This document shows positions 2,921 to 51,305 of a stretch of DNA of 64,000 nt, piece after piece. The first letter of the stretch is position 1. Every line of letters starts with the position of its first letter. Below the pieces are notes generated by a model that was not told where the DNA came from, did not search any database, and worked only from the letters and a program-made list of their open reading frames with translations. The stretch is from Escherichia coli (GTDB taxonomy: Bacteria; Pseudomonadota; Gammaproteobacteria; Enterobacterales; Enterobacteriaceae). The stretch lies in the NCBI RefSeq assembly GCF_029227855.1, contig NZ_CP074356.1; one strand, written 5' to 3'. The translations under genes and the position numbers were made by a program.

Positions 2921-3835
2921 TTACTGCAGCAGGCTGGAAACCATGCTGGACATGCTGTTGGACTGTTTCAGCATGGTGATGCCGGTCTGCATCAGCACCT
3001 GTTGTTTGGTCATGTTGGACGCTTCCGTCGCGTAGTCGGTATCCATGATGTTACCGATAGCAACTTCGGTGTTGTCCTGCATGCTGGTCAGGTTATTAGC
3101 CGTGTCGTTCAGACGGTTGATAGACGCACCCAGTTTGGACTGGATCTGAGACACGTCATCCATCGCGGTAGAGATGCTGGTGATCATCTGGTTAGCCGAG
3201 CCAGACGCAGTCAGCTCAGTACCGCCAGAAACGCCTGCGGTGCCCGTGGTGTCAGCCTGATCCGCACTAAAGGAGCTGCTGATAGCAGAAAGATCAGTCA
3301 CCAGGGTATTCAGCTGGCTTGAAATATTCACGGTCATGGTGTCGGAAGATTCCGCGCCCACCTGGAAAGTTACCGCGCTCTGGAACAGACCGTCAGTACC
3401 GGTGTTGCTGGTGCCGGAAACACCGAACAGGTTGGTGCCGCCGTAAGTGGTGTTTTGCAGCATGTCAGACATCTGCTGGCCCAGTTCGTCGTATTCGTCC
3501 TGCATCGCCTGCAGGTCGTCGTCGCTGTAGGTGCCGTTCGCTGCCTGAGTTGACAGGTCTTTCATACGACCCAGCACGTCAGACATTTCGTCGAACATGC
3601 TGTCAGCGGTTTGCAGCATCGCGGTGGCATCATTGATGTTGCTCAGCGCCACCCCCATACCGCTGGACTGTGCTGTCAGACGGTTAGCAATTTGTTTGCC
3701 TGCGGCGTCATCGGCAGAAGAGTTAATCCGGTTACCTGTCGCCAGGCGTTCCATAGATGTAGACAGAGAAGAGCTGCTTTTGCTGATTGCATTAACGGCG
3801 GCCATTGAGGCGTTATTGGTGTTAATAGATAACAT
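2921..3835 (-). CDS. lafA: lateral-type flagellin (Flag-2 LafA), 304 aa
   Basis: ORF track; start placed at internal ATG giving MLSINTNNASMAAVNAI... (flagellin N-terminus) with AGGAG Shine-Dalgarno; ends ...SSLLQ; the longer track ORF (from 3901) is an upstream in-frame extension. Confidence 0.9.
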   Translation of the reverse strand: MLSINTNNASMAAVNAISKSSSSLSTSMERLATGNRINSSADDAAGKQIANRLTAQSSGMGVALSNINDATAMLQTADSMFDEMSDVLGRMKDLSTQAANGTYSDDDLQAMQDEYDELGQQMSDMLQNTTYGGTNLFGVSGTSNTGTDGLFQSAVTFQVGAESSDTMTVNISSQLNTLVTDLSAISSSFSADQADTTGTAGVSGGTELTASGSANQMITSISTAMDDVSQIQSKLGASINRLNDTANNLTSMQDNTEVAIGNIMDTDYATEASNMTKQQVLMQTGITMLKQSNSMSSMVSSLLQ

Positions 3836-4271: not shown

Positions 4272-5165
4272 ATGCAAAGCACTATCAGGAAACATTTATC
4301 CCTTGCTAAGGTAAACTCAACTATGAGTATTATTATCAACAACTGGCGGATGGACCCGTCGCTTAATGCCTTAATACATTGCGAAACGGGTGAAACACGT
4401 CGTCTCGGCGAATACCATTTTATTTTGCTGGAAACATTAGCAAAAAATGCCGATGTGGTTTTATCGCGATCTTATTTATGTGCCGAAGTATGGAAGAACC
4501 GCATTGTCGGCGGTAACAGCCTGCCGACGGCGATCCACGCTCTGCGCGTTGCCATTGATGATGACGGCAAGCAACAGAACATTATTAAAACTATCCCGAA
4601 AAAAGGGTACCTGTGCAATAAAGAGTATGTGTCTTTGCCGGAGTCATCGCCTGCGGAAGCGCTGATTATTACCGACCAGATACAGGAAACAGTACCAGAA
4701 GAGATATCTTCTACAACACCGCCTGTGCCTGTTAGAAAAAAACATAAAGGACTGATGGGGTTAGCGTTGACCGCGGCTGTTATATTTATTGGCTCGACCG
4801 TGGGGTATTCACACTTGAAAAGTACACCTGACGCCCCGCAACTGGTAAAAGAGTCAATTAACAGTCCAAGAATAAAAATATTTCATCTTAGTTCTGGAAA
4901 AGAAAATAATTCCGCACCGTTACTGTCACAAACCCTCGCACCAGGAAAAGACAAACTCGATAATTTATTGTCAGCGCATAATATGACAATGACAACCTAT
5001 TATAAATATGTTCGTAACCGACTGGAGAGTGATATTGTTCTGCGCAACCAGTGCAATGGTAGCTGGCAATTAACCTTTAATGTGGATGAGTGGCAGAATA
5101 GCGATATTAATAGCGCGATGTATCAGAATTTAGAGAAGTTGTTAAATACTGTGCAGAAATGCTGA
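4272..5165 (+). CDS. ToxR/CadC-like membrane-anchored transcriptional regulator (winged-helix OmpR-type DNA-binding domain, one TM segment, periplasmic domain); possibly the Flag-2 lafZ
   Basis: ORF track; N-terminal region ...YLCAEVWKNRIVGGNSLPTAIHALRVAIDD... resembles trans_reg_C winged helix; hydrophobic stretch GLMGLALTAAVIFIGSTVGY; AT-rich gene and upstream region. The true start may be the ATG at 4323. Confidence 0.6.
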   Translation: MQSTIRKHLSLAKVNSTMSIIINNWRMDPSLNALIHCETGETRRLGEYHFILLETLAKNADVVLSRSYLCAEVWKNRIVGGNSLPTAIHALRVAIDDDGKQQNIIKTIPKKGYLCNKEYVSLPESSPAEALIITDQIQETVPEEISSTTPPVPVRKKHKGLMGLALTAAVIFIGSTVGYSHLKSTPDAPQLVKESINSPRIKIFHLSSGKENNSAPLLSQTLAPGKDKLDNLLSAHNMTMTTYYKYVRNRLESDIVLRNQCNGSWQLTFNVDEWQNSDINSAMYQNLEKLLNTVQKC

Positions 5166-12322: not shown

Positions 12323-13524
12323 TACATTGCCTGGAACAGCGCGTCATCGAGCTGCGTGCTGGTAGCGATAACTTTGGTGTTGGCCTGATAGTTACGCTGG
12401 GCGGTCATCAGGTTGACCAGTTCGCTGGTGATATCGACGTTAGAGCTTTCGAGCACGCCGGACGACAGCGTGCCGCAGGTGCCGGAGCCGGGAACGCCAA
12501 TCAGCGGGGTGCCGGACTCGCCCGTTTGTACCCACGCGGTGCCGCTCACTGCCTCCAGGCCGTTTTCATTCGGGAAAGTCGCCAGCACCACCTGCCCCTG
12601 CAACATGCGCTCGCCGTTGCTGTAGGTGGCGTAAACTTTGCCATCGTCATCAACCTGCACACCGTTTTGCGTTGCGGAGGCGTAGCCGTTGGCAGCGTTG
12701 GTGGTGACCGAGAAGTCCGAGCCGTATTGCGTACAAGTGGTGTAATCGACGGTTAAGTCGATGGGTGCGGCGGCGTCGGTCTGAAACTCAATGGTCTGTG
12801 GCGTGGTTGGCGAGGTCAGCTTCCCGGTATTCGGGTCGAAAGTTAAGGTCGTCGCCGGAACGCCAGTCTGCTGCTGACCGTCGAAGGTGTACTGCACTTC
12901 CCAGGTGTTTTCGCTGGTTTTGGTGAAATACTGGCATACCGAGTGTTCGTTACCTAATGAGTCATACACCGTGGTGGTGTAGCTGTCGGTGTACGAGCTG
13001 CTGTTGGTGGCGTCGAACGGTACGGTTGTACGGTCGATAGCTTCATCGCTGGCGTTGAAGTTAGCGGTAAAGGTCAGGCTGCTGCTGGCCTGCGCCGGGA
13101 TATTGCCGGTTTTGATCTGGATATCGGTGACCGTACCGGTTTGCAAAGTGCCGCTGTCATCGACCGGATACCCCTGCAAATAAGCGCCCGAGGCGTTGAC
13201 GATATAGCCGTTTTTGTCGGTTTCAAACGATCCGGCGCGGGTATAAGAAATGTTGCCCGCGCTGTCGCAGGTAACAAAAAAGCCATCGTTGTTAATCGCT
13301 AAATCGAGCGCGTTACCGGTGGAGACCAGCGAACCGCCACGCGAAATGCTCTGCGCGGTGCCTGCCACGCTGACGCCCATCGCCTGACTTCCGGCATACA
13401 TGGCGGAAAACTGGGTGGTCATCGACTTATAGCCCACCGTTCCGGCGTTGGCGATGTTGTTACTGATCCCGTCCAGCTGTTCGTTAACGGCATTCAGCCC
13501 CGTTGCGGCAATTTCATAACTCAT
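12322..13524 (-). CDS. lfgE: hook protein FlgE (Flag-2 LfgE)
   Basis: ORF track, 400 aa; axial N/C termini; position between flgD and flgF. Confidence 0.85.
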   Translation of the reverse strand: MSYEIAATGLNAVNEQLDGISNNIANAGTVGYKSMTTQFSAMYAGSQAMGVSVAGTAQSISRGGSLVSTGNALDLAINNDGFFVTCDSAGNISYTRAGSFETDKNGYIVNASGAYLQGYPVDDSGTLQTGTVTDIQIKTGNIPAQASSSLTFTANFNASDEAIDRTTVPFDATNSSSYTDSYTTTVYDSLGNEHSVCQYFTKTSENTWEVQYTFDGQQQTGVPATTLTFDPNTGKLTSPTTPQTIEFQTDAAAPIDLTVDYTTCTQYGSDFSVTTNAANGYASATQNGVQVDDDGKVYATYSNGERMLQGQVVLATFPNENGLEAVSGTAWVQTGESGTPLIGVPGSGTCGTLSSGVLESSNVDITSELVNLMTAQRNYQANTKVIATSTQLDDALFQAM

Positions 13525-13547: not shown

Positions 13548-14261
13548 TTACGCCACATCACTGTCGGCATCGGGTACGCCAAACTGGCTAATCATGGTGA
13601 ACGGCACTTCGCCCACGCCTGCAACATTGAGCACCGGAGAGCTGCCGTCGAGCGGGATGCGTACATCTTCCACTTCGCCGGAAACTTCAATCGGCACCTC
13701 TTCTTCCCCGGTGTTGGTCACCACCGAGACGTCGTAATCACCCGGCGGGATACCGTAATCCGCCGGATTAATCGAGAAATCCACCTGGCCTGGCCCGACG
13801 GACGAACTGCCTTCCGGGATCAGCGACACCGTATAGTCATCGCCTGCGGCATCGGTAAAGTGGAGATCGGCGGTGGTACAGGCGTCGTCAAGCGTGGCGC
13901 GACCATTAATGGTCTGGTCGCTCACCTGCAAGGCGGTGGTCTGCACCATAATGTCGTCACCCACCAGGTTGCCGAGCGCCATTACCTGAATGTTGCTCAT
14001 CAGCACCGCGTTGGTGTTGGCCTGCACGCTCATCTCTTCCATCATCGCCACCTGCGCCATCGACGAAAGCTGGTCGATGTATTCGGTGGCGTCAGTCGGG
14101 TCGGTCGGGTCCTGGTTTTGGATCTCGGCGACAAACAGCGTCAGGAAGGTATCGACGGGCGAGCTATCGCTGCTGCTTGTCGTGTCGCTGGCCGCCACGT
14201 TGTTGCTTTCCGCCGTGGCGGTCGGCTGCGGCGATTGCGCATTCAGCGCCAGGGTATTCAT
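13548..14261 (-). CDS. lfgD: hook capping/assembly protein FlgD (Flag-2 LfgD)
   Basis: ORF track, 237 aa; FlgD-like N-terminus (…FLTLFVAEIQNQDPTDP…). Confidence 0.8.
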   Translation of the reverse strand: MNTLALNAQSPQPTATAESNNVAASDTTSSSDSSPVDTFLTLFVAEIQNQDPTDPTDATEYIDQLSSMAQVAMMEEMSVQANTNAVLMSNIQVMALGNLVGDDIMVQTTALQVSDQTINGRATLDDACTTADLHFTDAAGDDYTVSLIPEGSSSVGPGQVDFSINPADYGIPPGDYDVSVVTNTGEEEVPIEVSGEVEDVRIPLDGSSPVLNVAGVGEVPFTMISQFGVPDADSDVA

Positions 14262-14692
14262 CAGGCTTCTCCCAGTTTCAGCAGGCTTTGCTGCATACTT
14301 TTCACGTTGTTGAGCACATCGACGTTGGTTTCAAAATCGCGCGAGGCCGACATCATGTCCGCCATCTGTTCCACCACGTTGACGTCGGGATACCAGACAT
14401 CTCCGTTAGCATCCGCCAGCGGCGAATGCGGTTCATAGCGTTTCACCGCCCCGCCGGTTTGCAGCACGTCCTGCACCTGCACGCTGGCACCGTCAATGGC
14501 ATGGCGATGTGTACCCGCCAGCAAGCTGTGGTGATACACCGCCGCAAACACCGGGCTGCGCGCTTTATACGCCTGCGCCTCGCTGCTGGCGGGTGCATTG
14601 GCATTCGCCAGGTTACTGGCAACGGTATTCAGACGTAGCGTTTGCGCTGTCATCGCCGAACCGGAAATCTGATAGATATCAGTAAATGACAT
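14261..14692 (-). CDS. lfgC: rod protein FlgC (Flag-2 LfgC), apparently intact
   Basis: ORF track, 143 aa, MSFTDIYQISGSAMTAQTLRLNTVASNLANA...; no frameshift visible. Confidence 0.9.
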   Translation of the reverse strand: MSFTDIYQISGSAMTAQTLRLNTVASNLANANAPASSEAQAYKARSPVFAAVYHHSLLAGTHRHAIDGASVQVQDVLQTGGAVKRYEPHSPLADANGDVWYPDVNVVEQMADMMSASRDFETNVDVLNNVKSMQQSLLKLGEA

Positions 14693-15082: not shown

Positions 15083-15111
15083 TTTTTTAAGTGACTGATG
15101 AGAAAGGGTTT

Positions 15112-15849
15112 ATGAGTTTTCAATTTTGCAGGCGGAAGTTTTATTTCCTCCTGGCGCTGGCCTTACCGGGCTACGCCGCCGTCTACCCCGTGCAACACAG
15201 CGCGCGGGAACAAGTCAACGCCCAGGTGCTGAATGCCGCGAGCCAGCAGATTGAATCGCTGGCGCAGCAGCGGCAGTGGCATGACTATCGCTACACCTTT
15301 AAGGTCTACATTCCCTCGCAGATTGCGACCGCTGCGCCCTGTGCTGCGGCACCCGGCGTCACGCTGACGTCGCCTGTGGACATCGCCCTCAACCGCATGA
15401 ACTTCACCGTCAGTTGCCCGCAAAGCTGGCAGATGAACGTGGCGGTGCGCCCGGATGTGCTGGTGCCGGTGGTGATGACAAAGTCACTGGTTGCCCGCGA
15501 TACGCCGCTCACGGCGAATGATGTGGAGCTGAAGCCCTACAACGTCAGCGCCCAGCGTCGCGATGTGTTGATGGAGCTTGATGACGCAATTGGTTTAAGC
15601 AGTAAGCACGCGCTGCAGCCGGGCAGGCCAATCACCAAAGAAGAGCTGGTCTCTCCGGTACTGATCGAGCGCGATCAGCCGGTGATGATTGTTTACCAGA
15701 ACGCGGGGATCACCGCCTCGATGCCCGGCGTGGCGCTGAAAAATGGCCGCAAAGGCGAGATGGTGAAAGTACGTAACGCAAGCAGCCAGCGGGTCATCAG
15801 CGCGATGGTGGCGGAAAGCGGCGTGGTGACAACGGTAAGCGCGGAGTAA
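15112..15849 (+). CDS. lfgA: P-ring assembly chaperone FlgA (Flag-2 LfgA)
   Basis: ORF track; start set at the ATG at 15112 (MSFQFCRRKFYFLLALALPGYAA, signal-like); divergent from flgB. Confidence 0.7.
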   Translation: MSFQFCRRKFYFLLALALPGYAAVYPVQHSAREQVNAQVLNAASQQIESLAQQRQWHDYRYTFKVYIPSQIATAAPCAAAPGVTLTSPVDIALNRMNFTVSCPQSWQMNVAVRPDVLVPVVMTKSLVARDTPLTANDVELKPYNVSAQRRDVLMELDDAIGLSSKHALQPGRPITKEELVSPVLIERDQPVMIVYQNAGITASMPGVALKNGRKGEMVKVRNASSQRVISAMVAESGVVTTVSAE

Positions 15850-16217: not shown

Positions 16218-16646
16218 GTGAGTATCCGGTTACAACAGGTGAAGGCGTTGTTGCAGGGAATTCGTGACGATGACGCGCTGTATGATTCCCTGCGCGAACT
16301 TCTCCAGCGTCAGCGGATCTGCATGATTCGCCGCGCCAGCGAAGAGCTGCTGGCGGTAAACGAGGAGATAACCCATCACTATGAGCAGTTGCATGGGCAT
16401 AGCCATCAGCGGCACAGCCTGCTGAAAATGCTTAATGTCAGTGTAAATCGTGACGGTCTGGCGCAGGTTTTTGCCTGGCTTCCGGCGGTACAAAAAGCGG
16501 CAGCACAACAGTTGTGGCAACGCCTTGAGCAAAAAGCGGAACGCTGCAAAGCCTACAACGACAAAAACGGCGAGCTGTTGATTCGCCAGTATGAATTTAT
16601 TCAGTCTTTTTTAGGTAGCGAAGCTGATTTTCTCTATCAGGAATAA
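16218..16646 (+). CDS. lfgN: FlgN-like export chaperone (Flag-2 LfgN)
   Basis: ORF track, 142 aa; GTG start 9 nt after an AAGAGG Shine-Dalgarno; helical, positioned after flgM. Confidence 0.7.
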   Translation: MSIRLQQVKALLQGIRDDDALYDSLRELLQRQRICMIRRASEELLAVNEEITHHYEQLHGHSHQRHSLLKMLNVSVNRDGLAQVFAWLPAVQKAAAQQLWQRLEQKAERCKAYNDKNGELLIRQYEFIQSFLGSEADFLYQE

Positions 16647-16773: not shown

Positions 16774-17703
16774 ATGAGTTTTATTGAATGTTACGAACCG
16801 GAATACGTGCGCAATTTTATGACGCAATATCCCGATTCGCCTTTGTACATCCGCAAGGTGTGGAAAAACGAGATTCGCCAGAGCCTGATGCTGACAGAGC
16901 CAGAAAGCTGCGAAGCGGTGCTCAACGATGCCAGGGCCTTTGATTTACAGCTCACCTACCGCCCGGCGGAAGATAATGCCGCAGAACTCTCCGCGCGCGA
17001 TGCGATAGTAAACCAGGTCATTTTGAGCACCCTTACGCTCCCCGATTTACCCCCGGAGCTTTCACTGTACGCCGTCGGGATTTTGCTCTCCCGCGCCAGC
17101 AAAATGCCGGGCAGAGACGGAGATATTCTTGCCCGCTTGACGACGCTGCCACAGGCGCTGGCCGCTCATGCACAAAAAGGCACGCTACAGGCACAGTTCG
17201 CCCAGTTGCCGCCTGTACCACAGCTGGCGCGCCAACTGGTGACGCTGCTCGGCAGTTGTGCGTTTGACTGGTCGATTCTGCCGGAAAGCCCGCGCAAAAC
17301 TTCCCTGCCGTTGCAGATGCCTTTGCTGGCGCTACATGACGCCAACAGCGAAGCCCTGTTGCAACAGCAGCTTCAGGCACAGTGGCAAACCACCTGGCAA
17401 CAGCATTTTGCCACCGCGCCCTGGATGATGTGTAACTGGCTGATTTACCGCGTTTACCATGAGGTGATTGGACAGGCAGACGGAGCAGATTATTGCCCGC
17501 TGGTGTGCGATTTTTATTTTATCCGCACGTTAATCAGTTTATGGACGCTGGATGGTTCTCCGCTGCGGAAGGAGGATATTTTCGCCCTTTTTGCGGTGTT
17601 TGAACGCTGGCGAGAGAGTGAAAATGCGCTGTTTATTCGCCAGCAAATTCAGTCGTTATGTGCCGCCGACCCGCTGCTTTCAGCGTTTTCGCTGCTGACG
17701 TGA
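16774..17703 (+). CDS. hypothetical protein, about 309 aa, in the flgA-flgM-flgN operon context
   Basis: ORF track (16735-17703); start placed at the ATG at 16774 (MSFIECYEPEY...) with a GGAAG Shine-Dalgarno; I recognise no family. Confidence 0.5.
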   Translation: MSFIECYEPEYVRNFMTQYPDSPLYIRKVWKNEIRQSLMLTEPESCEAVLNDARAFDLQLTYRPAEDNAAELSARDAIVNQVILSTLTLPDLPPELSLYAVGILLSRASKMPGRDGDILARLTTLPQALAAHAQKGTLQAQFAQLPPVPQLARQLVTLLGSCAFDWSILPESPRKTSLPLQMPLLALHDANSEALLQQQLQAQWQTTWQQHFATAPWMMCNWLIYRVYHEVIGQADGADYCPLVCDFYFIRTLISLWTLDGSPLRKEDIFALFAVFERWRESENALFIRQQIQSLCAADPLLSAFSLLT

Positions 17704-17717
17704 AGCCGCTCTCGATC

Positions 17718-17753
17718 GGTCCCCTCGCCCCTTCGGGGAGAGGGTGAGGGGCA
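17718..17753. repeat. GC-rich imperfect palindromic intergenic repeat, copy A
   Basis: ggtcccctcgccccttcggggagagggtgaggggca; its reverse complement aligns closely with the copy at 27433-27474. Confidence 0.6.
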
Positions 17754-17809
17754 AAGCACGCACAGCCCTCCTTACCCATCAAATTAACCCCTTAACTCAC
17801 CTAAACACC

Positions 17810-20281
17810 ATGCCAACACCAACCCTCATCAAAACACTCGCCACTCACCGCGAAAAACCGTTCGTCAGCGTCGTCACGCCCACATGGAACCGTAGCGCAT
17901 TCCTGCCGTACCTGCTCTATATGTACCGCTATCAGGATTACCCGGCAGACCGCCGCGAACTGGTCATCCTCGACGACTCGCCGCAAAGCCATCAACACAT
18001 CATCGACCGCCTGACCAATGGCACACCGGAAGCCTTTAACATCCGCTATATTCATCACCCGGAAAAACTGCCACTGGGCAAAAAACGCAACATGCTCAAC
18101 GAACTGGCGAGCGGCGAATACATCCTCTGCATGGACGATGACGACTACTACCCGGCAGATAAAATCTCTTACGCCATCGCCATGATGCAAAAACACCGGG
18201 CGCTCATCTCCGGTTCCGACCAGATCCCCATCTGGTACAGCCACATCAATCGCATCTTCCAAAGCCGCAGCTTTGGCTCACATAACATCCTCAACGGCAC
18301 CTTTTGCTATCACCGTAACTACCTGAAAAAGCACCGTTACGACGATGATTGTAATTTAGGCGAAGAGAAAAGTTTCACCAACAATTTCAGCGTTAACCCG
18401 CTACAACTGCCCGGCGAGCGCACGATTCTGTGTATCTCGCACAGTCACAACACCTTTGATAAAGATTTTATTCTCGGGGCTAGCACGCCAGTAAACGCGG
18501 CGCTTACGGATATCGTCCGCGATCCGCTGCTGCGCAATGCTTATCTGAGTCTGCATAACGCCACTCATCACCAGGCGATCGATCAGGTCGTACTGATCAA
18601 TCTGGATAAACGCCCGGATCGCTTACAGCAGATCCGTGAAGAACTCACATTGCTGTATATTCCGCCTGAGAAGATCACCCGCCTTGCCGCCAGTGAAAAT
18701 GAAAACGGTCAACGGGGTCGCCGCCAGTCACACTTGCAGGCGCTGCGCCTGGCGCAACAGCACGGCTGGCAAAACTACCTGCTGCTGGAAGATGACGCAG
18801 TTATTCTCAAGCAGGAGAAACATATTCAGGTACTGAACACGCTGCTCGCGAGCCTGGCGAAAATTCCCTGGCAGGTGATGATCCTTGGCGGCGAAATTTC
18901 GCAGGGAACGATGCTAAAAAGTTTGCCGGGGCTGGTGCACGCGCGGGACTGCCGCAAAGTGTGCGCTTATCTGGTGAACAGTCGCTACTACCCGCAACTG
19001 GCGCAGCAGATGAGCCACAATGAACACTCGCTGGAAGACGGCTGGCAGCCGCTGCTACGCGCCGACAAATGGCTGGCCTGTTACCCGAGCCTTAGTTATC
19101 AGCGACCGGGCTTTAGTGATATCGAGAAAAAAGTGACCGACAACATTGCTCACTATTTCAATAAGTTACCCGTTATCACAAAGCCATCCGCATTACCCAT
19201 CGCCGACACCATCGGCTTTTTTATGGAAACCTCCTTCCACTACGCGCTCTACCGCCCAATCATCACTGCTCTACAGGTGCAGGGGCAGAGCTGCACGCTG
19301 GTGATCAATGACCGCGTGTTTAAACCGTTTCTTGATGAGATGCTGGAAACACTGAAAAACATCGACGATCCGCAGCTTAAAGGAATGCGCTTATCTGAAA
19401 TGCAGGCACACGGTCAGCGGGTGAAATGCCTGGTCAGCCCCTACCACACGCCCGCGCTCAATGGCCTGGCAGCGGTGAACGTTCGCGCCATGTACGGCTT
19501 AGCCAAAGAGACGTGGAACCACGCCGACTGGAACCGTTTTTATCAACGCATTTTGTGTTACAGCCACTACAGCCAGCGGGCGCTGGCGCATTTCGGCAAT
19601 GCAAAAGCAGTCGGCAACCCGCGCTTCGACGCCTGGCATAACGGCACGTTTGCCCGCACTCTGCCGGAAAATATTCAACCCGATTCCCGTAAACCTACGG
19701 TGCTCTATGCCCCCACGTTTGGCGCATTAAGCTCCCTGCCCCACTGGGCAGAAAAATTAGGCCGCTTAAGTGGCAATGTGAATCTGATTTGCAAACTGCA
19801 CCACGGCACCTGCTCGCGCCCGGAAGAAGCGGCATCGCTGGCCCTGGCGCGCAGGCATTTAAAACAGCGCACCGACTCCGCCCGCCACACGCTGGCGCTG
19901 CTGGCAAAGGCCGATTACGTGCTGACCGATAACAGCGGCTTTATTTTCGATGCTATTCACGTTGATAAGCGGGTGATCCTGCTCGACTTTCCGGGCATGG
20001 CAGCGTTGCTCGACGGTGAGAAAAGTTACTCCACGCCGGAGAGCGCCGATCAGCAAATCCGCGAAATATTGCCGGTGGCTCATGATATGGCAGAGTTGCG
20101 TTACTTGTTGTCAGAGGCGTTTGACTGGGGGGCGGTGCAGGCGCGGCTTACGAAGATTCGCCATCACTATTGCGATGCGTTTATGGATGGCAAAGCGGGA
20201 GAACGGGCGGCGATGGTGATTGTGGAGGCGCTGGCGGACAAGGAATCGTCAGGGATATGTCGATATAATTCGATTTTTTAA
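17810..20281 (+). CDS. multidomain glycosyltransferase, about 823 aa: N-terminal GT2-like, central GT25-like, C-terminal CDP-glycerol glycerophosphotransferase (TagB/TagF-like)
   Basis: ORF track (17744-20281); start set at ATG 17810 (MPTPTLIK...). N-terminus VSVVTPTWNRSAFLP...LDDSP...CMDDDDYY (DXD motif); middle VVLINLDKRPDRLQQI...LLLEDDAVI; C-terminus TVLYAPTFG...KLHHGT...VLTDNSGFIFDAIHVDKRVI. Domain calls by eye, unverified. Confidence 0.7.
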   Translation: MPTPTLIKTLATHREKPFVSVVTPTWNRSAFLPYLLYMYRYQDYPADRRELVILDDSPQSHQHIIDRLTNGTPEAFNIRYIHHPEKLPLGKKRNMLNELASGEYILCMDDDDYYPADKISYAIAMMQKHRALISGSDQIPIWYSHINRIFQSRSFGSHNILNGTFCYHRNYLKKHRYDDDCNLGEEKSFTNNFSVNPLQLPGERTILCISHSHNTFDKDFILGASTPVNAALTDIVRDPLLRNAYLSLHNATHHQAIDQVVLINLDKRPDRLQQIREELTLLYIPPEKITRLAASENENGQRGRRQSHLQALRLAQQHGWQNYLLLEDDAVILKQEKHIQVLNTLLASLAKIPWQVMILGGEISQGTMLKSLPGLVHARDCRKVCAYLVNSRYYPQLAQQMSHNEHSLEDGWQPLLRADKWLACYPSLSYQRPGFSDIEKKVTDNIAHYFNKLPVITKPSALPIADTIGFFMETSFHYALYRPIITALQVQGQSCTLVINDRVFKPFLDEMLETLKNIDDPQLKGMRLSEMQAHGQRVKCLVSPYHTPALNGLAAVNVRAMYGLAKETWNHADWNRFYQRILCYSHYSQRALAHFGNAKAVGNPRFDAWHNGTFARTLPENIQPDSRKPTVLYAPTFGALSSLPHWAEKLGRLSGNVNLICKLHHGTCSRPEEAASLALARRHLKQRTDSARHTLALLAKADYVLTDNSGFIFDAIHVDKRVILLDFPGMAALLDGEKSYSTPESADQQIREILPVAHDMAELRYLLSEAFDWGAVQARLTKIRHHYCDAFMDGKAGERAAMVIVEALADKESSGICRYNSIF

Positions 20282-20359
20282 ACATGTCGTTGGAATACGT
20301 TTATGCCATCGACATGTTTTAGGGATATGTCGAAAAAACGCGATTTTTTAAACATATTT
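20251..20359. other. structured intergenic element: two ~39-bp direct repeats bracketing a 10-bp-stem hairpin, between convergent glycosyltransferase and cytidylyltransferase genes
   Basis: Direct repeats agggatatgtcga...cgattttttaaacat at 20251-20289 and 20321-20359; inverted repeat aaacatgtcg (20280-20289) / cgacatgttt (20310-20319) with 20-nt loop. Confidence 0.6.
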
Positions 20360-20410
20360 AACATAGCCAAACGGCAGACGGCATCATCTTCTCTCACCGC
20401 GGGAATTAAA

Positions 20411-20815
20411 TCAGTAGGTGGCTGATTTACCCCTAATCACCTCAATGATCCCCGTCGTCGATACCGATGGCGTACGGGGAAAATAGACCACCTCACAGAC
20501 ACACGAGAAATCGTCAAACTTCCCCGCCCAGTCATCGCCCATCACCAAAATATCCGCACCGTACCCCCGCAAATACTCCGCTTTCTGCTCCAGCGATTCC
20601 TCCAGAAATACGCCCTCCACGCACGCCAGCCCGGCGATAATCGCCATGCGGTCATCCTGATGGTAAACCGGTGCCCTGCCCTTTTTGGCGATGTTCAAGG
20701 CATCGGACGATACGCCGACCAGCAACCGTTCGCCCAGCGTGCGGGCGCGTTGTAAAAGGCGCAGATGACCGACGTGAAACACATCAAAGGTGCCGAAGGT
20801 GATGACCGTTTTCAT
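20411..20815 (-). CDS. glycerol-3-phosphate cytidylyltransferase (TagD-like), 134 aa
   Basis: ORF track; MKTVITFGTFDVFHVGHLRLL... (HxGH motif) and ...MGDDWAGKF...CEVVYFPRT..STTGIIE closely resemble TagD-type cytidylyltransferases; last gene of the fliE-fliJ operon. Confidence 0.8.
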   Translation of the reverse strand: MKTVITFGTFDVFHVGHLRLLQRARTLGERLLVGVSSDALNIAKKGRAPVYHQDDRMAIIAGLACVEGVFLEESLEQKAEYLRGYGADILVMGDDWAGKFDDFSCVCEVVYFPRTPSVSTTGIIEVIRGKSATY

Positions 20816-20817
20816 CG

Positions 20818-21252
20818 CTACTCCGCTAATTTATGCCGTAGCCAGCACTGAACGGCAATGTCATCCACCGCTTTTTGCGCTTTCGCCGTGGCGCTTTCCT
20901 GCTGCTCGCGGCGTTTGTCGTCCAGCGTCAGGACCACCACTTTCTCTTCGCACGCCGCCGCCGTCAGGTTTTTCTGCATTCGCGTGGCTTTGATGTTAGC
21001 CAGCGTTTTTTCCTGTTCCTGCCAGGCGATCACCTTGCGCAGGGTGCCTTTGTAGCCGCTGACGTTTTTCAGTGATTCCACCGACGCCGCCGCGCCCGCA
21101 GACGTTTTCTCTACCAGGTAGCCTAACGCCTTGATATTGTTGTCATAGCCCGCGCAGATCTGTTTTTGCTTTGCCAGCTCGACAGTTTTGTCTTTGACCG
21201 ATTTATCCCGCAGGCGCTGCAACTGCGCCAGGGTGTCGATGATTTGTCGCAT
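20818..21252 (-). CDS. lfiJ: FliJ-like export apparatus protein (Flag-2 LfiJ)
   Basis: ORF track, 144 aa coiled-coil protein downstream of fliI. Confidence 0.65.
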   Translation of the reverse strand: MRQIIDTLAQLQRLRDKSVKDKTVELAKQKQICAGYDNNIKALGYLVEKTSAGAAASVESLKNVSGYKGTLRKVIAWQEQEKTLANIKATRMQKNLTAAACEEKVVVLTLDDKRREQQESATAKAQKAVDDIAVQCWLRHKLAE

Positions 21253-29893: not shown

Positions 29894-30676
29894 ATGCGCA
29901 CAAGCGACGTTACGCAACTGATGGATCTGGCGCTGGGGCTGTGGTTTCCCTTCGTGCGCATTATGGCGTTTCTGCGCTATGTGCCGGTGCTGGATAACAG
30001 CGCCCTGACCGTGCGCGTGCGGATTATTTTGTCGCTGGCGCTGGCAATCATCATCACGCCGTTGATCCCCCATCCCATTCCCCACGATCTGCTTTCACTC
30101 AACAGCCTGATCCTGACGGTGGAGCAAATTTTATGGGGCATGTTGTTCGGGCTGATGTTTCAGTTTCTGTTTCTCGCGCTACAACTGGCCGGACAAATTC
30201 TCTCGTTCAATATGGGGATGAGCATGGCGGTGATGAACGACCCGAGCAGCGGCGCATCGACCACCGTGCTGGCGGAGTTAATCAACGTCTATGCGATCCT
30301 GCTGTTTTTTGCCATGGACGGGCATCTGCTGCTGGTAAGCGTGCTGTATAAGGGCTTCACCTACTGGCCGATTGGTAACGCGCTGCATCCGCAAACCCTG
30401 CGCACCATCGCGCTGGCCTTTAGCTGGGTGCTGGCGTCCGCATCACTGCTGGCGCTGCCGACCACCTTCATCATGCTGATTGTGCAGGGCTGCTTTGGCC
30501 TGCTCAACCGCATCGCGCCGCCGCTGAACCTCTTTTCGCTCGGCTTTCCCATCAACATGCTGGCGGGGCTGGTTTGCTTTGCCACCCTGCTCTACAACCT
30601 GCCGGATCACTATCTGCATCTGGCGAATTTTGTGTTGCAGCAACTCGACGCGCTGAAAGGTCACTATGGCGGATAG
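29894..30676 (+). CDS. lfiR: export apparatus protein FliR (Flag-2 LfiR)
   Basis: ORF track (29843-30676); start at ATG 29894 immediately after the fliQ stop; polytopic membrane protein. Confidence 0.85.
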   Translation: MRTSDVTQLMDLALGLWFPFVRIMAFLRYVPVLDNSALTVRVRIILSLALAIIITPLIPHPIPHDLLSLNSLILTVEQILWGMLFGLMFQFLFLALQLAGQILSFNMGMSMAVMNDPSSGASTTVLAELINVYAILLFFAMDGHLLLVSVLYKGFTYWPIGNALHPQTLRTIALAFSWVLASASLLALPTTFIMLIVQGCFGLLNRIAPPLNLFSLGFPINMLAGLVCFATLLYNLPDHYLHLANFVLQQLDALKGHYGG

Positions 30677-31805
30677 CAGCAGCGAAGAAAAAACAGAGAA
30701 ACCCTCGGCGCAAAAGCTGCGTAAAGCGCGTGAAGAGGGGCAACTGCCGCGCTCGAAGGATATGGGGCTGGCAGCGAGCCTGTTTGCAGCGTTTGTGGTG
30801 ATCTCCAGCAGTTTTCCGTGGTATGCCGATTTTGTGCGCGAGAGTTTTATCAGCGTGCATCAGTACGCGCAGGAGATTAATAACCCGCAGGTGATCGGTC
30901 AGTTTCTGCGCCACCACCTGTTAATTCTCGGCAAGTTTATCCTTACGTTGCTGCCGATGCCCGCCGCCGCGCTGCTCTCTTCGCTGGTGCCGGGCGGCTG
31001 GCTGTTTCTGCCGAAAAAAATCCTCCCGGATTTCAGCAAAATTAGCCCGTTAAAAGGCATTGGGCGTCTGTTTTCCAGTGAACATCTGGCGGAAACGGGA
31101 AAGATGACGGTGAAGTCTGCCGTGGTGCTGGTGATGCTGTGGGTAAGCCTGCGCAATAACTTTGCCGCCTTTCTCGGCCTGCAGGCGCTGCCGTTCAAAC
31201 TGGCGATGAATGACGGTTTGTCGCTCTACGCCAGCGTGATGCGCAACTTTGTCATCCTGTTTATTTTCTTTGCGCTTCTCGACGTGCCGCTGGCGAAAGC
31301 CCTGTTCACCAAAGGGCTGAAGATGACCAAACAAGAACTGAAAGAAGAGTACAAAAATCAGGAAGGCAAGCCGGAAGTGAAGGCGCGCGTGCGGCGGCTG
31401 CAACGGCAGCTGGCGATGGGGCAAATTCGCAAAGTGGTGCCAAAGGCCAACGTGGTGATCACCAACCCGACCCACTACGCCGTGGCGTTGCAGTATGACC
31501 AGTCGCGTGCCGCCGCGCCGTTTGTGGTGGCGAAAGGCACCGATGAAATCGCCCTCTATATTCGCCAGGTCGCTGCTGAAAGTCAGGTGGAAGTGGTCGA
31601 GTTCCCGCGGCTGGCGCGCTCGGTTTACTATACCACTCAGGTGAATCAGCAAATTCCTTTTCAGCTTTACCGGGCTATCGCCCACGTTCTGACCTACGTC
31701 CTGCAAATGAAACACTGGCGCGAGGGCGCACAGCCGCGCCCGGCCCTGAACAGACATATTTCCATTCCCAAAGAGGTGCTTAAACTGGATGGCGAAAACA
31801 ACTAA
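30666..31805 (+). CDS. lfhB: export apparatus protein FlhB (Flag-2 LfhB)
   Basis: ORF track, 379 aa; conserved NPTH autocleavage motif (…VVITNPTHYAVAL…). Confidence 0.9.
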   Translation: MADSSSEEKTEKPSAQKLRKAREEGQLPRSKDMGLAASLFAAFVVISSSFPWYADFVRESFISVHQYAQEINNPQVIGQFLRHHLLILGKFILTLLPMPAAALLSSLVPGGWLFLPKKILPDFSKISPLKGIGRLFSSEHLAETGKMTVKSAVVLVMLWVSLRNNFAAFLGLQALPFKLAMNDGLSLYASVMRNFVILFIFFALLDVPLAKALFTKGLKMTKQELKEEYKNQEGKPEVKARVRRLQRQLAMGQIRKVVPKANVVITNPTHYAVALQYDQSRAAAPFVVAKGTDEIALYIRQVAAESQVEVVEFPRLARSVYYTTQVNQQIPFQLYRAIAHVLTYVLQMKHWREGAQPRPALNRHISIPKEVLKLDGENN

Positions 31806-42120: not shown

Positions 42121-42143
42121 CAGGGAAAGATTACGAAAGCCCG
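42121..42143. repeat. 23-bp direct repeat, right copy
   Basis: cagggaaagattacgaaagcccg. Confidence 0.6.
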
Positions 42144-43263
42144 CTCCCCGCAAGGACTGACGCCAGATAGTTTCTGTCCATGGCTGCTTTTCGCATCTTA
42201 CGTCTTAACCCTGCCTTGAATACCTTATCATTCGTCAAAATATTAATAGCGATGTGCCGTATCCCTGAAAATAATTCTGCTGCATTTCCTCTTCTTATTT
42301 TGCAGTCGTCTTCATTCATTACCACGTCCAGACGCCAGTGCAGCTTATTCTCCACGTGCCAGTGGTTTCGGATTGCTGTGGCGAACTTCTCTGCGGTTAA
42401 ATCAGCAGAACTAATATAATATCTGACCGCCATTTCTGGCTCTTTCTTTTGTTCTGCTATTATTGACCGAAAGGAGACTGCCACGCATAATTTCTTCAGA
42501 CCTTTCCATTCAAACGTGAAATCAATAAGTTCATCAGGGACATCGCAAACAATGTGAAGACGGATTTCTTCTCTGCCGTGACTCTTTTCACTCATTGCGT
42601 AACTGTCATGCTCTGGATTATTTAATTCTTTCAGCGGAAATTCTCGAAGGCTTTATTTAGCCGCCCCTGGTTTCCTTTTACAGCGAATAAATAATCACCT
42701 CCCTGTTTTTGTATCTTCTCTGCAATATCTTTCTGGCAACCCATCGCATCAGTTGTGATGATTTTTCCTTTAATATCCAGCATGTTAAGAAGTTCTGGGA
42801 TAGCTGTAATTTCATTGGATTTCTCATCCGTCCTGATCTGTCCGATGACCAGACTGTGCATTGTTGAGAACGCACTAATGACATGAATCGCTCCCTTGCG
42901 GCGACTCTTGTCATAAGAATGCCGGAGTGTTTTTCCATCAATTGCGATGACGTCTTTATCATCTGAAGTATGGCAATCTCGCATCCAGTTAATAAAGCAC
43001 TCGTGAAATTTTGCAGGACTGATACAGGATACAACTCTGGCGATGGTATCGTGAACAGGAATACCATTTTAAAAATCACCGTATTGTTTTAAAAAATCGA
43101 GATGTGTTTCCCCAAAATCCTCTATATCTTCCCAACCTTCCGCACCCGAAATAACAGCACAAATAGTCAACAGTAGAATATCCGATAATTTATGTTCCAC
43201 TTTCCAGGCTTGTCTGTAATCGGGGATAATAGAAATATGCCCCATCAATTTTTTAAGTTCTAT
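42131..43263 (-). mobile_element. ISAs1-family (H-repeat) transposase gene, inactivated
   Basis: Track ORFs 42631-42984 and 42131-42595 are consecutive parts of an ISAs1/H-rpt transposase in different frames; hand translation of 43263-42985 gives the N-terminus with ATA in place of the first ATG (an in-frame Met codon remains at 43245-43243), and an in-frame TAA at 43071-43069. Confidence 0.8.
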
Positions 43264-43483: not shown

Positions 43484-43861
43484 TCACTCCTGACCAAAAT
43501 CTTTCCACACTAATGCATGAGACTTTGATTTATCACCCAAAAATTTACTTACATCTTTCCAAAGTAAAGAATTGCTATCGGTCGCAGTGACTATTGCCTC
43601 TATAAGCCCTGTAGCTACAACTGTGGCCAATTCATCATCAATCGAGACCATACCATCTTCGACATGTTTAAATATTTTTTCTCTTTCAATATCACCCATT
43701 TCATAAAAATTTTTTACAATCGTTTTTCCAATCTGAGAGAACAACATAACCACCGGTGGAGTTTCTGGATGCCAGTATTCATTAGCTAATGAGACTGTCT
43801 CAGACAAAACAGTGGAAAACGATGCCATTTTTTCTATATAATTAGCAATATATTGGTTCAT
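43484..43861 (-). CDS. putative immunity protein for the Rhs C-terminal toxin, 125 aa
   Basis: ORF track; small AT-rich ORF whose ATG overlaps the rhs stop codon; classic effector-immunity arrangement; family unknown. Confidence 0.5.
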   Translation of the reverse strand: MNQYIANYIEKMASFSTVLSETVSLANEYWHPETPPVVMLFSQIGKTIVKNFYEMGDIEREKIFKHVEDGMVSIDDELATVVATGLIEAIVTATDSNSLLWKDVSKFLGDKSKSHALVWKDFGQE

Positions 43862-46800: not shown

Positions 46801-48360
46801 CCAGCGCGTAATGTTACCGTTGCGCGAGATCTCTTCTGCCAGTCGGCCCTGACGGTCATATTTCCGGCTGCTGCGTAAACCATCCGGATATGTCACTGAA
46901 GTCAGTTGCAACTGGCTGTTGTAACCATACCGTACCGTCCTGCCGTCCGGCAGTATCACTGAAGTCAGCTTTCCAGACGCCATATGCAGCCGGTACTCCG
47001 TCCGCCGTCCTGCCGCATCCGTCTGCGCCTTCAGCCTCCCCGCCTCATCATACTCGCTGCGGGTGATGCTCCCGTCGGCATGCTCCTTCTTCACCACACG
47101 CTTCAGGCCACCCCCGCCTTCCGTGTACAGCACCTCCCGCCGGTTCAGGCTGTCCGTGATGGTCACACGGTCCTGCCCGTACTCAAAGCGGTAGTCCAGC
47201 CCCTCCGGGTTGACCTGCTCCGTCACCCGCCCGGTATCATCATACCGGTAGCGGCTCTCCGGCCTCCCTGCATAATGGTGCGCCACCATCCGCCCGGCGT
47301 GCTCCGCATCATAAGTAAACCCGCGCACCTGCGTCCCGCTGCGGTCATACACCGCCCGCAGTTCTCCGCTGGCCGTGTACGTATAGCGCGCCAGCGGCGC
47401 AGTCGGCTGTTCATCCGGGTATGCCGGGTCGTGTGTCAGCCACACCGCCTCCAGCCGGATACCGTTATCGGCACCGTATTCTGTACCGGCGGGCAGCGTA
47501 TCGGGGAAAACCTGAGAAGAGGAAACAGAACGGGGACCGGCTGGAGAAGATAAAGAAGAGGCGCGCTGTTTACGGAAGGCTTCCGCCCGCTGCGCCTGCG
47601 TGCTCAGCGCCAGGTGAAAACAGCGGCCCGCGCCGTCCGTCACCCCCGTCACCGCACCCGCCACGTCACCCTCTGCCGCCCGGTGGAAGGCCAGCGTCCG
47701 CCCGAAGCCGTCCACCACGCCCGTCAGCACCCGGTATGCGGGCGGCTCCGGCGGCAGCACCTCGTCCGCCCCCGGCACCCGCTCCGGCCAGCCGAGCACC
47801 AGCCACTGCCCGGTTGTGCTGGCAGCCATCATATAGATGTGTGGACTCAGACGGACCGCTTCCGGCAACGCCCGCCAGAGCCGCGCAAGCGGGTGGCCTT
47901 TGTGCTGTTTCAGCACCCCGCACCGCGCCAGCCAGAACGACTCGCTGCGGCTGTAGCTTATCTCGCCGGGAAACAGGGGTTCAAAGTGAATGCTCCTGCC
48001 GCCGCTGTCGTTGAGTATCAGGCCTTCATCGCGTATCTGTAAGCGGATATCGAAGGGGGCTTTCCAGCCGGGACCAAACACCCCCACCGGCGCGGGCGTC
48101 CTGGTCCGGTAGCTGCTGTAGGCGCGGAAAAGAACAAACGGCAGCGGGCCGGACAGTGCCAGGTCGGTTTCAGCAGGCAGCACCTTCGCTCCCAGCAGCG
48201 GGTTTACCGGATTGCCATATTTCGGCGTGGCTTCCCCTGTGGGACACACCGAGCAGGCCACACCGGTTGGCGCACCTATCAGCACCCCTGCTGAACCCTG
48301 CACAATATCCAGTCCCTTGCGGGTCATGTCACCCTGCCGCGCCGCCGGTTTTCCACCCAT
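43861..48360 (-). CDS. rhs: PAAR-domain Rhs (YD-repeat) polymorphic toxin, 1499 aa, with variable C-terminal toxin domain
   Basis: ORF track; N-terminal PAAR motif ([11 protein letters not shown]...), long YD-repeat core, DPLGL core-end motif at 44593-44607 followed by a ~243-aa C-terminal domain of lower GC. Confidence 0.9.
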
Positions 48361-50786: not shown

Positions 50787-51305
50787 TTATGCTTCCAGCG
50801 GTGCGCGCCAGTCGTCGGCACCGGAGGTGCCAGACTTGACGTGTTCCCACTCTATTTTGCGGTAGGCCAGTGAAACTTCGAGCAACTGGGTGAACTCGCG
50901 TTTCGCCGGATCCTGGCAATGCGGCATATGCAGTTTCATATCGACAATCGTCGAATCGGTCAGGCGGGTGGTGAAATAATGCTCCTGTTTGCCTTCCACA
51001 GAGGTACGCCACCAGTGAAGTTCAGTGGTTGGCAGCATTTCGCCGGAGGCCAGTGCGTTGTACATCAGCGGAACAGCTTTGTTCAGCGCCACGGTAAAAA
51101 TGAACGGCTTGTGAGCACGCTGACCCGCAGGCTGGCCGGACTGAGGATCGGTCGGGACAGTAACGTTATGCAGGAATTCCTGCACCAGCATCTCGTCTTC
51201 GTGCCCCTGCACATAGATGTTGCCGACAGAATCAGCGGTAAATGCACCTGCAGTAATATTTCCCTGGGTCTGACCAGTGATGGAGATATAACACGGTGTT
51301 GGCAT
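50787..51305 (-). CDS. hcp: T6SS tube protein Hcp (TssD)
   Basis: ORF track, 172 aa, MPTPCYISITGQTQGNITAGAF... Confidence 0.9.
   Translation of the reverse strand: MPTPCYISITGQTQGNITAGAFTADSVGNIYVQGHEDEMLVQEFLHNVTVPTDPQSGQPAGQRAHKPFIFTVALNKAVPLMYNALASGEMLPTTELHWWRTSVEGKQEHYFTTRLTDSTIVDMKLHMPHCQDPAKREFTQLLEVSLAYRKIEWEHVKSGTSGADDWRAPLEA

Follow-up and report, generated by a model that had tools for sequence, protein, structure and literature searches.

In the Type A flagellar glycan of Clostridioides difficile, the TagF-like enzyme FtaD/CD0244 moves N-methyl-phosphothreonine from cytidine diphosphate (CDP)-N-methylthreonine to the O-GlcNAc of the flagellin FliC; it is genetically required (PMC10714395), and its activity has been reconstituted in vitro (bioRxiv 10.64898/2026.02.12.704994). 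For the b-type flagellin of Pseudomonas aeruginosa, PA1091/FgtA is a fusion of a glycosyltransferase (GT) and a TagF-like phosphotransferase (PMC10714395). In the lateral flagellar (Flag-2) locus, De Maayer, Pillay & Coutinho (BMC Genomics 2020, PMC6993521) defined variable region 1 (VR1) between lfiJ and lfgN, an integration hotspot with very diverse cargo. Their catalogue lists GT2-1 (828 residues, 222 strains, pfam00535 only), GT2-3 (474 residues, 99 strains), TagD (133 residues, 235 strains), TagB1-8 (65 strains), LtaS and a FliB-like LafV, and they suggested that the Flag-2 flagellin glycan includes polymers of the teichoic-acid type. Here we analyse the VR1 cargo of the Flag-2 locus in a 64,000-nucleotide stretch of Escherichia coli DNA (RefSeq assembly GCF_029227855.1, contig NZ_CP074356.1; hereafter the window), which comprises lafV, a gene for an 823-residue transferase and a gene for a 134-residue TagD-like cytidylyltransferase. 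Together these three probably form a cytoplasmic flagellin-modification cassette that places a glycerol-phosphate-bearing sugar on the lateral flagellin LafA.

An initial annotation of the window had identified the transferase and the TagD-like protein as the last genes of two convergent flagellar operons and suggested that they could make CDP-glycerol and transfer glycerol-phosphate and sugars, most plausibly to the lateral flagellin or another secreted axial protein. Both open reading frames (ORFs) and their arrangement are as it described, although it overlooked lafV, directly upstream. It also knew of no characterised modification of this kind on flagellin in Enterobacteriaceae and took the chemistry to be normally that of Gram-positive teichoic acids. 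However, the general idea had been published before, as a prediction for this same locus (PMC6993521), and both PA1091 (PMC10714395) and the capsule enzyme Cps3D (8QOY) are Gram-negative, with the C. difficile reaction reconstituted as well. The large ORF spans 17744..20281 (+), and translation from the ATG at 17810, whose methionine (M1) is invariant across 26 orthologues, gives 823 residues. The tagD-like ORF (20411..20815, -) begins with an ATG 2 nt past the fliJ/lfiJ stop codon. A spacer of 129 bp separates the two convergent genes, which are therefore the last of the flgA-M-N-lafV-GT and fliE-J operons. The features of the cassette and its surroundings are as follows.

17810..20281, + strand: three-module transferase, 823 residues, 'GT2-1' of De Maayer et al.
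17843..18574, + strand: module 1, GT2 with GT-A fold, residues ~12-255; the DDDD run at residues 109-112 is nt 18134-18145
18575..19174, + strand: module 2, GT25-like with GT-A fold, residues 256-455; LEDD at residues 326-329 is nt 18785-18796
19175..20278, + strand: module 3, TagB/TagF-like CDP-alcohol phosphotransferase with GT-B fold, residues 456-823, assigned by profile and fold
19706-19723, + strand: YAPTFG, residues 633-638, module 3 donor-side motif
19793-19804, + strand: KLHH, residues 662-665, module 3 donor-side motif
19925-19954, + strand: TDNSGFIFDA, residues 706-715, module 3 donor-side motif
20282..20410, no strand: intergenic spacer where the two operons converge
20411..20815, - strand: tagD-like cytidylyltransferase, 134 residues, last gene of the fliE-F-G-H-I-J series
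16774..17703, + strand: lafV, 309 residues from the RefSeq-equivalent ATG at 16774; the frame is open from a TTG at 16735 (322 residues)
16218..16646, + strand: flgN/lfgN, last core gene before the cargo, named FlgN in the RefSeq annotation of E. coli JNEC-KY178 (L001)
15091-15849, + strand: flgA, first of the + strand series flgA, flgM, flgN, lafV, transferase
20818..21252, - strand: fliJ/lfiJ, core gene directly upstream of the tagD-like gene
2921..3835, - strand: lafA, lateral flagellin, 304 residues, 'lateral flagellin LafA' in L001 according to the Prokaryotic Genome Annotation Pipeline (PGAP)

The proposed pathway would begin with the 134-residue enzyme, which would convert CTP and sn-glycerol-3-phosphate into CDP-glycerol and pyrophosphate. 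The GT2 module would then O-glycosylate Ser/Thr residues in the central region of not-yet-exported LafA, a region that is very Ser/Thr-rich in the translation, and the GT25-like module would add a second sugar. Next, the TagF-like module would transfer glycerol-phosphate from CDP-glycerol to a sugar hydroxyl with release of CMP, yielding a phosphodiester-linked 'post-glycosylation modification' of +154 Da. LafV would methylate lysines separately. The folds and families of the four domains, their intact metal-binding and donor-site motifs, the embedding in the operons, the purifying selection and the coupling of tagD to the TagF family were all computed in silico; CDP-glycerol as donor, LafA as acceptor, the sugars, the step order and the number of glycerol-phosphates added (one or several) are inferred.

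The lafV product is a putative FliB-like flagellin lysine-N-methylase. It scores 43 bits (E 4e-11) against NCBIfam NF038110 Lys_methyl_FliB, short of that model's cut-off of 85, and its orthologues bear Pfam FliB_C, so that we regard it as a member of the FliB family and not as an equivalog. It travels with the transferase in most related loci (it is missing in L015 and L018), and its position directly upstream strengthens the flagellin-modification reading. None of the three cassette products contains transmembrane-like segments, which fits cytoplasmic enzymes that act on flagellin before type-III export. Membrane-associated teichoic-acid or capsule synthesis was also considered and is ruled out, as the locus contains no transmembrane segments, lipid-carrier enzymes or exporters.

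The 134-residue protein is TagD-like over its full length. It matches Pfam CTP_transf_like with E 2.4e-19 and B. subtilis TagD (1COZ) with E 3.5e-32 and 47% identity; other solved relatives are S. aureus 2B7L (4e-27), ethanolamine-phosphate cytidylyltransferase (1.8e-15) and choline-phosphate cytidylyltransferase (~1e-5). The TagD signature motifs are all retained: HxGH at H14-H17 (H14-V-G-H17), GDDWxGKFD at 93-101 and RTxxxSTT at 114-121 (R114-T-P-S-V-S-T-T121). Its subfamily is Gram-negative, very large and strongly conserved, with a mixture of automatic names among the members; the protein is 70-76% identical even to those from metagenome-assembled genomes (MAGs) labelled Methylibium, Opacimonas and Ornithinibacter. 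We found no characterised member of this subfamily in the homologue list, and the neighbours in its non-flagellar contexts (an Opacimonas-type and a very abundant metagenomic type) were uninformative about the substrate. The product of the enzyme is probably CDP-glycerol.

The transferase is 95% identical among E. coli orthologues and ~70% identical in Citrobacter, and consists of three modules: a GT2 domain, a second, GT25-like GT-A domain and a TagF-like GT-B phosphotransferase. Pfam models searched against the members of alignment A1, which holds 26 full-length orthologues, match GT2 in 26/26, Glyphos_transf in 9/26 at E<=1e-3 (best 5e-8) and GT25 in 1-2/26. The AlphaFold2 model has a mean predicted local distance difference test (pLDDT) score of 75 and is good at residues 12-130, 256-450 and 465-812. 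Residues 130-255 (18197-18574) fall below a pLDDT of 50, yet are the most strongly conserved stretch of the transferase, with invariant residues that include SGxD, WYSH, NGTF and HSxNTFDK. This stretch may serve to bind the acceptor (flagellin) and become folded only once bound.

Module 1 was correctly recognised from the start as a GT2 domain with a DDDDYY motif. It matches PF00535 Glycos_transf_2 with E 4.8e-17 (residues 20-134) and, among solved proteins, PglI (9JMA, 4.6e-10); its pLDDT is 80-90 over residues 12-110. In the acidic DXD motif CMDDDDYY (residues 107-114), D109, D110 and D111 are invariant and D112 is found in at least 90% of the orthologues. By analogy, module 1 likely carries out the first sugar transfer to a protein acceptor, because a two-domain homologue takes the CD0240 slot in the Fta-like operon of Burkholderia described below.

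The assignment of module 2 to the GT25-like enzymes stands at the level of family, fold and motifs. PF01755 matches 6/15 members of the middle-domain alignment (best 5.9e-7), and the Plesiomonas orthologue carries it. A middle-domain profile, which took in stand-alone ~220-residue paralogues from other Flag-2 loci, matched the solved chains of Mimivirus glycosyltransferase R655 (9CRZ) at 1.6e-4 and human COLGALT1 at 0.025. These GT25-like paralogues adjoin fliJ in the loci where they occur. The motifs INLDxRxDR, GxxGxxxSH and LEDD align to those of solved GT25 relatives, and E327-D328-D329 is invariant in the 26 orthologues; since D109-D111 is likewise invariant, both GT-A modules look catalytically competent. 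The top Foldseek match of the AlphaFold model is COLGALT1, the collagen galactosyltransferase; it spans modules 1-2 (E 3e-13, ~557 columns). COLGALT1 is a tandem of two GT-A domains that acts directly on a protein side chain. It resembles modules 1-2 in fold and has the motifs R-x-D-R, G-x-x-G-C-x-x-SH and EDD in common with them, but the identity is only 12-15% and the relative orientation of the domains differs (root-mean-square deviation ~20 A).

Module 3 was likewise found to be TagB/TagF-like when the family or the fold was used. A C-terminal domain profile matched the solved chains of Cps3D (2.4e-11), TarL (6.8e-9) and TagF (9.7e-7), and after COLGALT1 the Foldseek search returned S. epidermidis TagF (E 1e-10, target TM-score ~0.6), then TarL and the capsule multienzyme Cps3D. 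The module shares with TagF the GT-B fold and the donor-side motifs, for which YAPTFG aligns to YAPTWR, KLH664 to RMH584 and TDNSGFIFDA to TDYSSVMFDY. An NCBI record (P0040) names one orthologue 'bifunctional glycosyltransferase family 2 protein/CDP-glycerol:glycerophosphate glycerophosphotransferase'. A TagF-like module hidden in GT2-1 explains why TagD (235 strains) far exceeds the listed TagB proteins (65) and is about as frequent as GT2-1 (222) in the published catalogue.

If module 3 uses the product of the TagD-like enzyme, the two should be found together in other genomes. We collected 32 homologous loci from exact-protein look-ups and one scan of representative genomes, and used phmmer and pairwise alignments to score each for the three modules, for tagD (counted if within 10 kb), for lafV and for other Glyphos_transf genes; 28 loci were left once redundant or truncated ones had been dropped. 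Motifs were taken as intact when they read YAPT, K-x-H-H and TD(N/S)SG. A tagD gene was present in 16/19 loci with a motif-intact TagF-family enzyme and in 0/9 loci in which the domain is absent, swapped or decayed (Fisher p = 3e-5 on [[16,3],[0,9]], which is indicative only, as shared ancestry is uncorrected). Thirteen of the 16 tagD loci have the fused form: the window, Escherichia sp. E1V33, two Pseudocitrobacter, six Citrobacter, Pseudescherichia vulneris, Enterobacter sp. ENT03 and Enterobacteriaceae bacterium RIT691. In two others, an Erwinia MAG (L024) and Rahnella laticis (L026), the C-terminal domain is split off as its own ~380-residue gene beside tagD, and Paramixta (L008) combines a two-domain GT with lafV, tagD and a different type of stand-alone Glyphos_transf. 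In Paramixta and Burkholderia the stand-alone Glyphos_transf proteins share a superfamily with the fused domain, but at 17-19% identity to it (mixed alignment A2) they were rejected as its orthologues.

The donor-side motifs of module 3 are kept wherever tagD is present. Among the 9 loci with neither tagD nor an intact module, the module is absent from the ~470-residue two-domain forms of Citrobacter werkmanii, Serratia, Pantoea and an Enterobacteriaceae MAG, and is replaced by Capsule_synth in L003 and by a different C-terminus in Phytobacter (L020). In three further loci it is present but the motifs have decayed: to YAPSLD / LLHNDD / SDDDARLFDA in Leminorella (L009), YVPAAG / TLPPAV / TDRCEVIFDA in Enterobacter sp. 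(L031) and YAPKLD / VMQHGG / GDNRALLFDA in Atlantibacter (L032). Both GT-A modules stay intact in the loci that lost tagD and in which the TagF-like module is decayed or replaced. Loss of tagD alongside decay or replacement of module 3 is what a dedicated donor/transferase pair predicts, and from this co-occurrence module 3 is predicted to use CDP-glycerol and transfer glycerol-phosphate.

Motif-intact enzymes without tagD occur in three loci: a MAG (L018), Plesiomonas (L002) and Burkholderia (L006). The last two have other CDP-donor genes alongside. In the Plesiomonas sp. MAG (L002 11211-15618) the orthologue is 38% identical with intact motifs, and its neighbours are gamma-glutamyl-CDP-amidate-hydrolase-like (E 4e-32), PRK05849-family kinase-like (901 bits) and an NTP_transferase. 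We take these to correspond to Campylobacter Cj1416-1418 of the CDP-glutamine/phosphoramidate pathway; their presence hints at a phosphoramidate- or phosphoglutamine-type flagellar glycan modification. On chromosome 2 of Burkholderia oklahomensis (L006 6001-12617), in what is presumably the second (Fla2-type) flagellar cluster, a two-domain GT heads an operon that continues, in this order, with genes for FliB_C, methyltransferase, HAD, IspD-like nucleotidyltransferase and Glyphos_transf proteins, flagellin and motA. This set matches C. difficile FtaABCD and by analogy predicts a modification of the N-methyl-phosphothreonine type.

Other variants were seen among these loci. In L003 (8001-12052, Citrobacter-like) and L020 (9908-12571) the same core of GT2 and GT25-like modules carries another C-terminal domain, which looks like domain-level shuffling of the third module; L003 has a hexapeptide acetyltransferase and a stand-alone GT25-like gene in place of tagD. 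Capsule_synth, the C-terminus of L003, is the KpsC/KpsS-type family. Escherichia sp. E1V33 (L011) carries two tagD genes, a broken copy in two frames (12559-12997) right after the transferase and, ~1.5 kb beyond it, an intact one (14140-14556); De Maayer et al. counted 8 strains with two copies (PMC6993521). A second, canonical Glyphos_transf besides the module 3 homologue is found in C. youngae CCUG 30791 (L014 12486-13748) and Rahnella laticis (L026 12760-14007, 15050-16189), and two glycerophosphotransferases per cassette are reminiscent of a TagB-primase/TagF-polymerase pair.

Several observations weigh against the glycerol-phosphate proposal. The 134-residue protein scores 112.3 bits against TIGR01518 (EC 2.7.7.39), under the equivalog cut-off of 165.4 that marks TagD itself, and PGAP does not give it the TagD name. 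TagD residues K46, R63 and W74 are replaced by G, A and L at the aligned positions. K44 and K46 are reportedly the substrate-loop lysines of TagD; here K44 is kept and K46 aligns to G46, flanked by K45 and R47, in a loop 2 residues longer than that of TagD. As read from the alignment, this K44-K46 loop has the length found in ethanolamine-phosphate cytidylyltransferase, and around K44-R47 it has the 'AKxxG..PV(Y/F)' look of 3ELB, an enzyme of that kind. These features would suit a system of the same architecture and target with another donor, in which the TagF-like module transfers phosphoethanolamine, phosphocholine, a polyol phosphate or a phospho-amino acid, as would the use of CDP-N-methylthreonine by FtaD and probably of a CDP-glutamine-derived donor in Plesiomonas. 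However, we consider such a donor unlikely, as the closest solved relatives by far are the glycerol-3-phosphate cytidylyltransferases 1COZ and 2B7L, the 47% identity extends over the full length with the GDDWxGKFD block and the RTxxxSTT spacing kept, and CDD puts the Flag-2 TagD in cd02171 at E 4e-46 (PMC6993521).

For the transferase, Pfam searches with the single 823-residue sequence found GT2 at a significant level, Glyphos_transf (PF04464) at a non-significant E of 0.0066 (residues 597-723) and no GT25; on the middle domain alone PF01755 reached E = 3, so that the GT25 model falls short of significance on the E. coli sequence itself. NCBIfam returned generic GT2 relatives only, and a whole-protein profile against the PDB found GT2 relatives plus a sub-threshold COLGALT1. 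The weak single-sequence result does not refute the module assignments, because family alignments, profile searches against the PDB and AlphaFold/Foldseek resolved modules 2 and 3; the GT25 call is the weakest of the three. The catalytic base of TagF is said to be His444 (in QTWHG). In a low-confidence alignment it falls on Tyr545 in SPY(Y/H)TP, with no conserved His; the acceptor-side subdomain of module 3 has diverged from that of TagF. The invariant H477, D501 and R559 and the near-invariant H571 are candidates for alternative catalytic residues. Also on the negative side, VR1 of the MAG L018 holds the transferase only, with intact motifs and no tagD within 10 kb, and in the literature, mostly outside subscription papers, we found no experiment on the Flag-2 cassette. 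The same reading turned up no report of glycerol-phosphate on any flagellin and no glycan analysis of E. coli LafA.

The Flag-2 of the E. coli reference strain 042 is reportedly inactivated by a frameshift in lfgC, and this raises the question of whether the cassette is a relic, in which the genes are intact by chance in a silent or decaying Flag-2 system and make no product in practice. Flag-2 has been deleted from most E. coli: the cassette region is carried by 1279/5426 complete E. coli genomes (~24%), leaving ~76% without it. The nearest genome, JNEC-KY178, is 99.6% identical over the 4.2-kb region (most other E. coli matches are at 90-95%) and has a frameshifted flhB (L001 33982-35120). 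The window, however, has an intact 379-residue flhB ORF (30666-31805) and its Flag-2 may thus work where that of its nearest relative does not; all Flag-2 ORFs visible in the window are full length, including flhB and flgC. Estimates of dN/dS, the ratio of nonsynonymous to synonymous substitution rates, were made against the Escherichia sp. E1V33 and Pseudocitrobacter orthologues (dS 0.14-0.46). They gave 0.12-0.14 for the whole transferase gene (0.06-0.19 per module), 0.07-0.09 for tagD and 0.15-0.27 for lafV. For tagD and the transferase this shows lasting purifying selection on a level with that of FlgN. The catalytic motifs are moreover intact in 16 independent loci, with decay only where tagD is lost. 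A relic is therefore very improbable. Horizontal junk or an artefactual ORF was a separate candidate, ruled out by dN/dS, motif conservation and synteny.

The genomic setting bears on the target. VR1 is an integration hotspot with diverse cargo (PMC6993521), LafA is an acceptor by inference only, and in the TagF-like module the acceptor-side subdomain has diverged too far for interpretation. The genes could on these grounds be hotspot cargo that acts on another exported axial protein (hook, cap or junction) or on a non-flagellar glycoconjugate. This seems very unlikely to us given that each of the two flagellar operons ends with one of these genes, with tagD 2 nt after fliJ, and that 31/31 informative loci of the GT family, those with flanking DNA long enough for a judgement, lie in flagellar clusters, across Enterobacterales, Plesiomonas and Burkholderia. 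In Enterobacteriaceae bacterium RIT691 (L016 7205-12508) the tagD-lafV-transferase cassette adjoins lafA and not the flgN-fliJ slot, having been relocated as a unit, and in L006 it is also next to a flagellin gene. A FliB-like flagellin methylase travels along, the proteins are soluble, and undecaprenyl-phosphate and export components are absent from the locus. Co-occurrence, the fused and split forms, the lafA-adjacent cassette, the flagellar contexts and purifying selection partly support the functional reading of these sequences. The proposed CDP-glycerol donor and the proposed decoration of LafA gain comparative support from the tagD/TagF coupling and the flagellar loci.

The best solved match of module 3, Cps3D, suggests a variant of the pathway. 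Cps3D joins a glycosyltransferase domain to a TagF-like module and makes a long alternating polymer of sugar and glycerol-phosphate. If module action here follows that of Cps3D, the transferase would be a primer-plus-copolymerase in which GT2 primes Ser/Thr and the GT25-like and TagF-like modules alternate, building a short sugar/glycerol-phosphate oligomer on LafA. The match to Cps3D (a 'capsule polymerase' in its PDB entry) and the second TagF-family gene in L014 and L026 weakly favour such an oligomer, which we hold to be quite unlikely. It would amount to a protein-anchored 'flagellar teichoic acid' in roughly 1/4 of E. coli strains.

Under the preferred reading, a glycerol-phosphate-bearing sugar on LafA, flagellin would have, beside N-methyl-phosphothreonine, glycerol-phosphate as a second post-glycosylation modification linked by a phosphodiester. 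The TagF-like phosphotransferases would then be a modular toolkit in which one and the same acceptor machinery is combined with exchangeable CDP-donor pathways, namely TagD in this locus, genes like the Fta set in Burkholderia and genes of phosphoramidate type in Plesiomonas. With its negative charge, glycerol-phosphate at the filament surface could affect swarming, recognition by phages and antibodies, and innate sensing. Flag-2 biology in E. coli is itself poorly established. The proposal gives a testable function to a cassette that about 24% of complete E. coli genomes carry, as do Citrobacter, Enterobacter, Pseudescherichia and others. RefSeq labels for the enzymes are generic only ("glycosyltransferase", "adenylyl/cytidyltransferase family protein"); the PGAP names of the cargo are 'lysine-N-methylase', 'glycosyltransferase', and 'adenylyltransferase/cytidyltransferase family protein' or 'FAD synthase family protein'.

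In the spacer between the two operon ends we found an inverted repeat of 10 bp without mismatches, whose arms AAACATGTCG (20280-20289) and CGACATGTTT (20310-20319) enclose a loop of 20 nt, and in the spacer region the 15-bp sequence CGATTTTTTAAACAT occurs as a direct repeat at 20271 and 20341. A scan of the convergent spacer revealed no canonical terminator, and a terminator and promoter scan of both operon ends gave no convincing sites above chance. The RefSeq neighbourhood runs in the order lafU ... lafA ... flgB-L, flgAMN, fliE-J, sigma-54 activator, fliM-R and flhBA, with yafL, dpaA, yafJ, lpcA and fadE beyond flhBA. A low-GC (~40%) ORF (4272-5165, +) between lafA and the hook-associated protein genes has a weak CadC/OmpR-type winged-helix match and is a 'transcriptional regulator' in RefSeq; it probably corresponds to the cargo that De Maayer et al. 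describe for VR2. On the right-hand side of Flag-2, where a low-GC patch (~36%) lies at 43-44 kb, the following features were noted.

42131-42595: ISAs1-family transposase fragment, right of Flag-2 and the yafL-fadE-side genes
43861-48360: full RHS core protein gene, 1499 residues
43484-43861: ORF of 125 residues that follows the RHS gene, a possible immunity gene
48436-50577: ORF of 713 residues, candidate VgrG from size and position
50787-51305: ORF of 172 residues, candidate Hcp from size and position

Residues ~1257-1499 of the RHS protein, beyond the RHS core model, are presumably a variable toxin tip, and further large ORFs right of 51305 are possibly type VI secretion genes.

Among known systems, the wall teichoic acid enzymes share the chemistry proposed here for module 3, but module 3 is without their membrane-association region and lipid-linked acceptor. 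In the wall teichoic acid systems of B. subtilis and S. epidermidis the product is part of the cell wall, whereas here it would be expected on a cytoplasmic protein-linked glycan. Cps3D of A. pleuropneumoniae (8QOY) is closer in being a multi-domain protein with a TagF-like module and differs in making capsule, where the context here is flagellar. TagF-like capsule polymerases occur in other Gram-negative capsule loci too.

The combination of a GT, a cytidylyltransferase and a soluble TagF-like phosphotransferase in one flagellar locus is that of the FtaD/PA1091-type systems. C. difficile CD0240 and FtaABCD likewise comprise a GT2-type flagellin O-glycosyltransferase, a cytidylyltransferase for the CDP donor and a soluble TagF-like enzyme in a flagellar neighbourhood, and FtaD, which we liken to module 3 by description, sets a phospho-group on a flagellin-linked sugar through a phosphodiester. 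There the donor comes from a HAD phosphotransferase, an IspD-like nucleotidyltransferase and a methyltransferase, whereas here a single TagD-type enzyme is predicted to make CDP-glycerol and the transferases are fused in one protein with an extra GT25-like module. Genes for FtaA (HAD), FtaB (IspD-like) and FtaC (methyltransferase) are absent from the window, which has the TagD-like gene instead, and neither FtaD (Q18CY0) nor PA1091 is among the top 50 AFDB50 matches. P. aeruginosa PA1091, with PA1088-PA1090, is again alike by description: it is Gram-negative and has one fused polypeptide for a sugar with a phosphodiester-linked group. It differs in that its donor genes resemble the Fta set and not TagD, a GT25-like middle module has not been reported for it, and it acts on the primary polar flagellin and not on a lateral Flag-2 flagellin.

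VR1 as described by De Maayer et al. is the same locus with the same genes (GT2-1, TagD and LafV), to which we add the GT25-like and TagF-like modules of GT2-1 and the link between motif decay and loss of tagD. The cassette is thus best described as a flagellin O-glycan system with phosphodiester modification by a TagF-like enzyme, in which the new parts are the TagD/CDP-glycerol donor and the GT25-like module.

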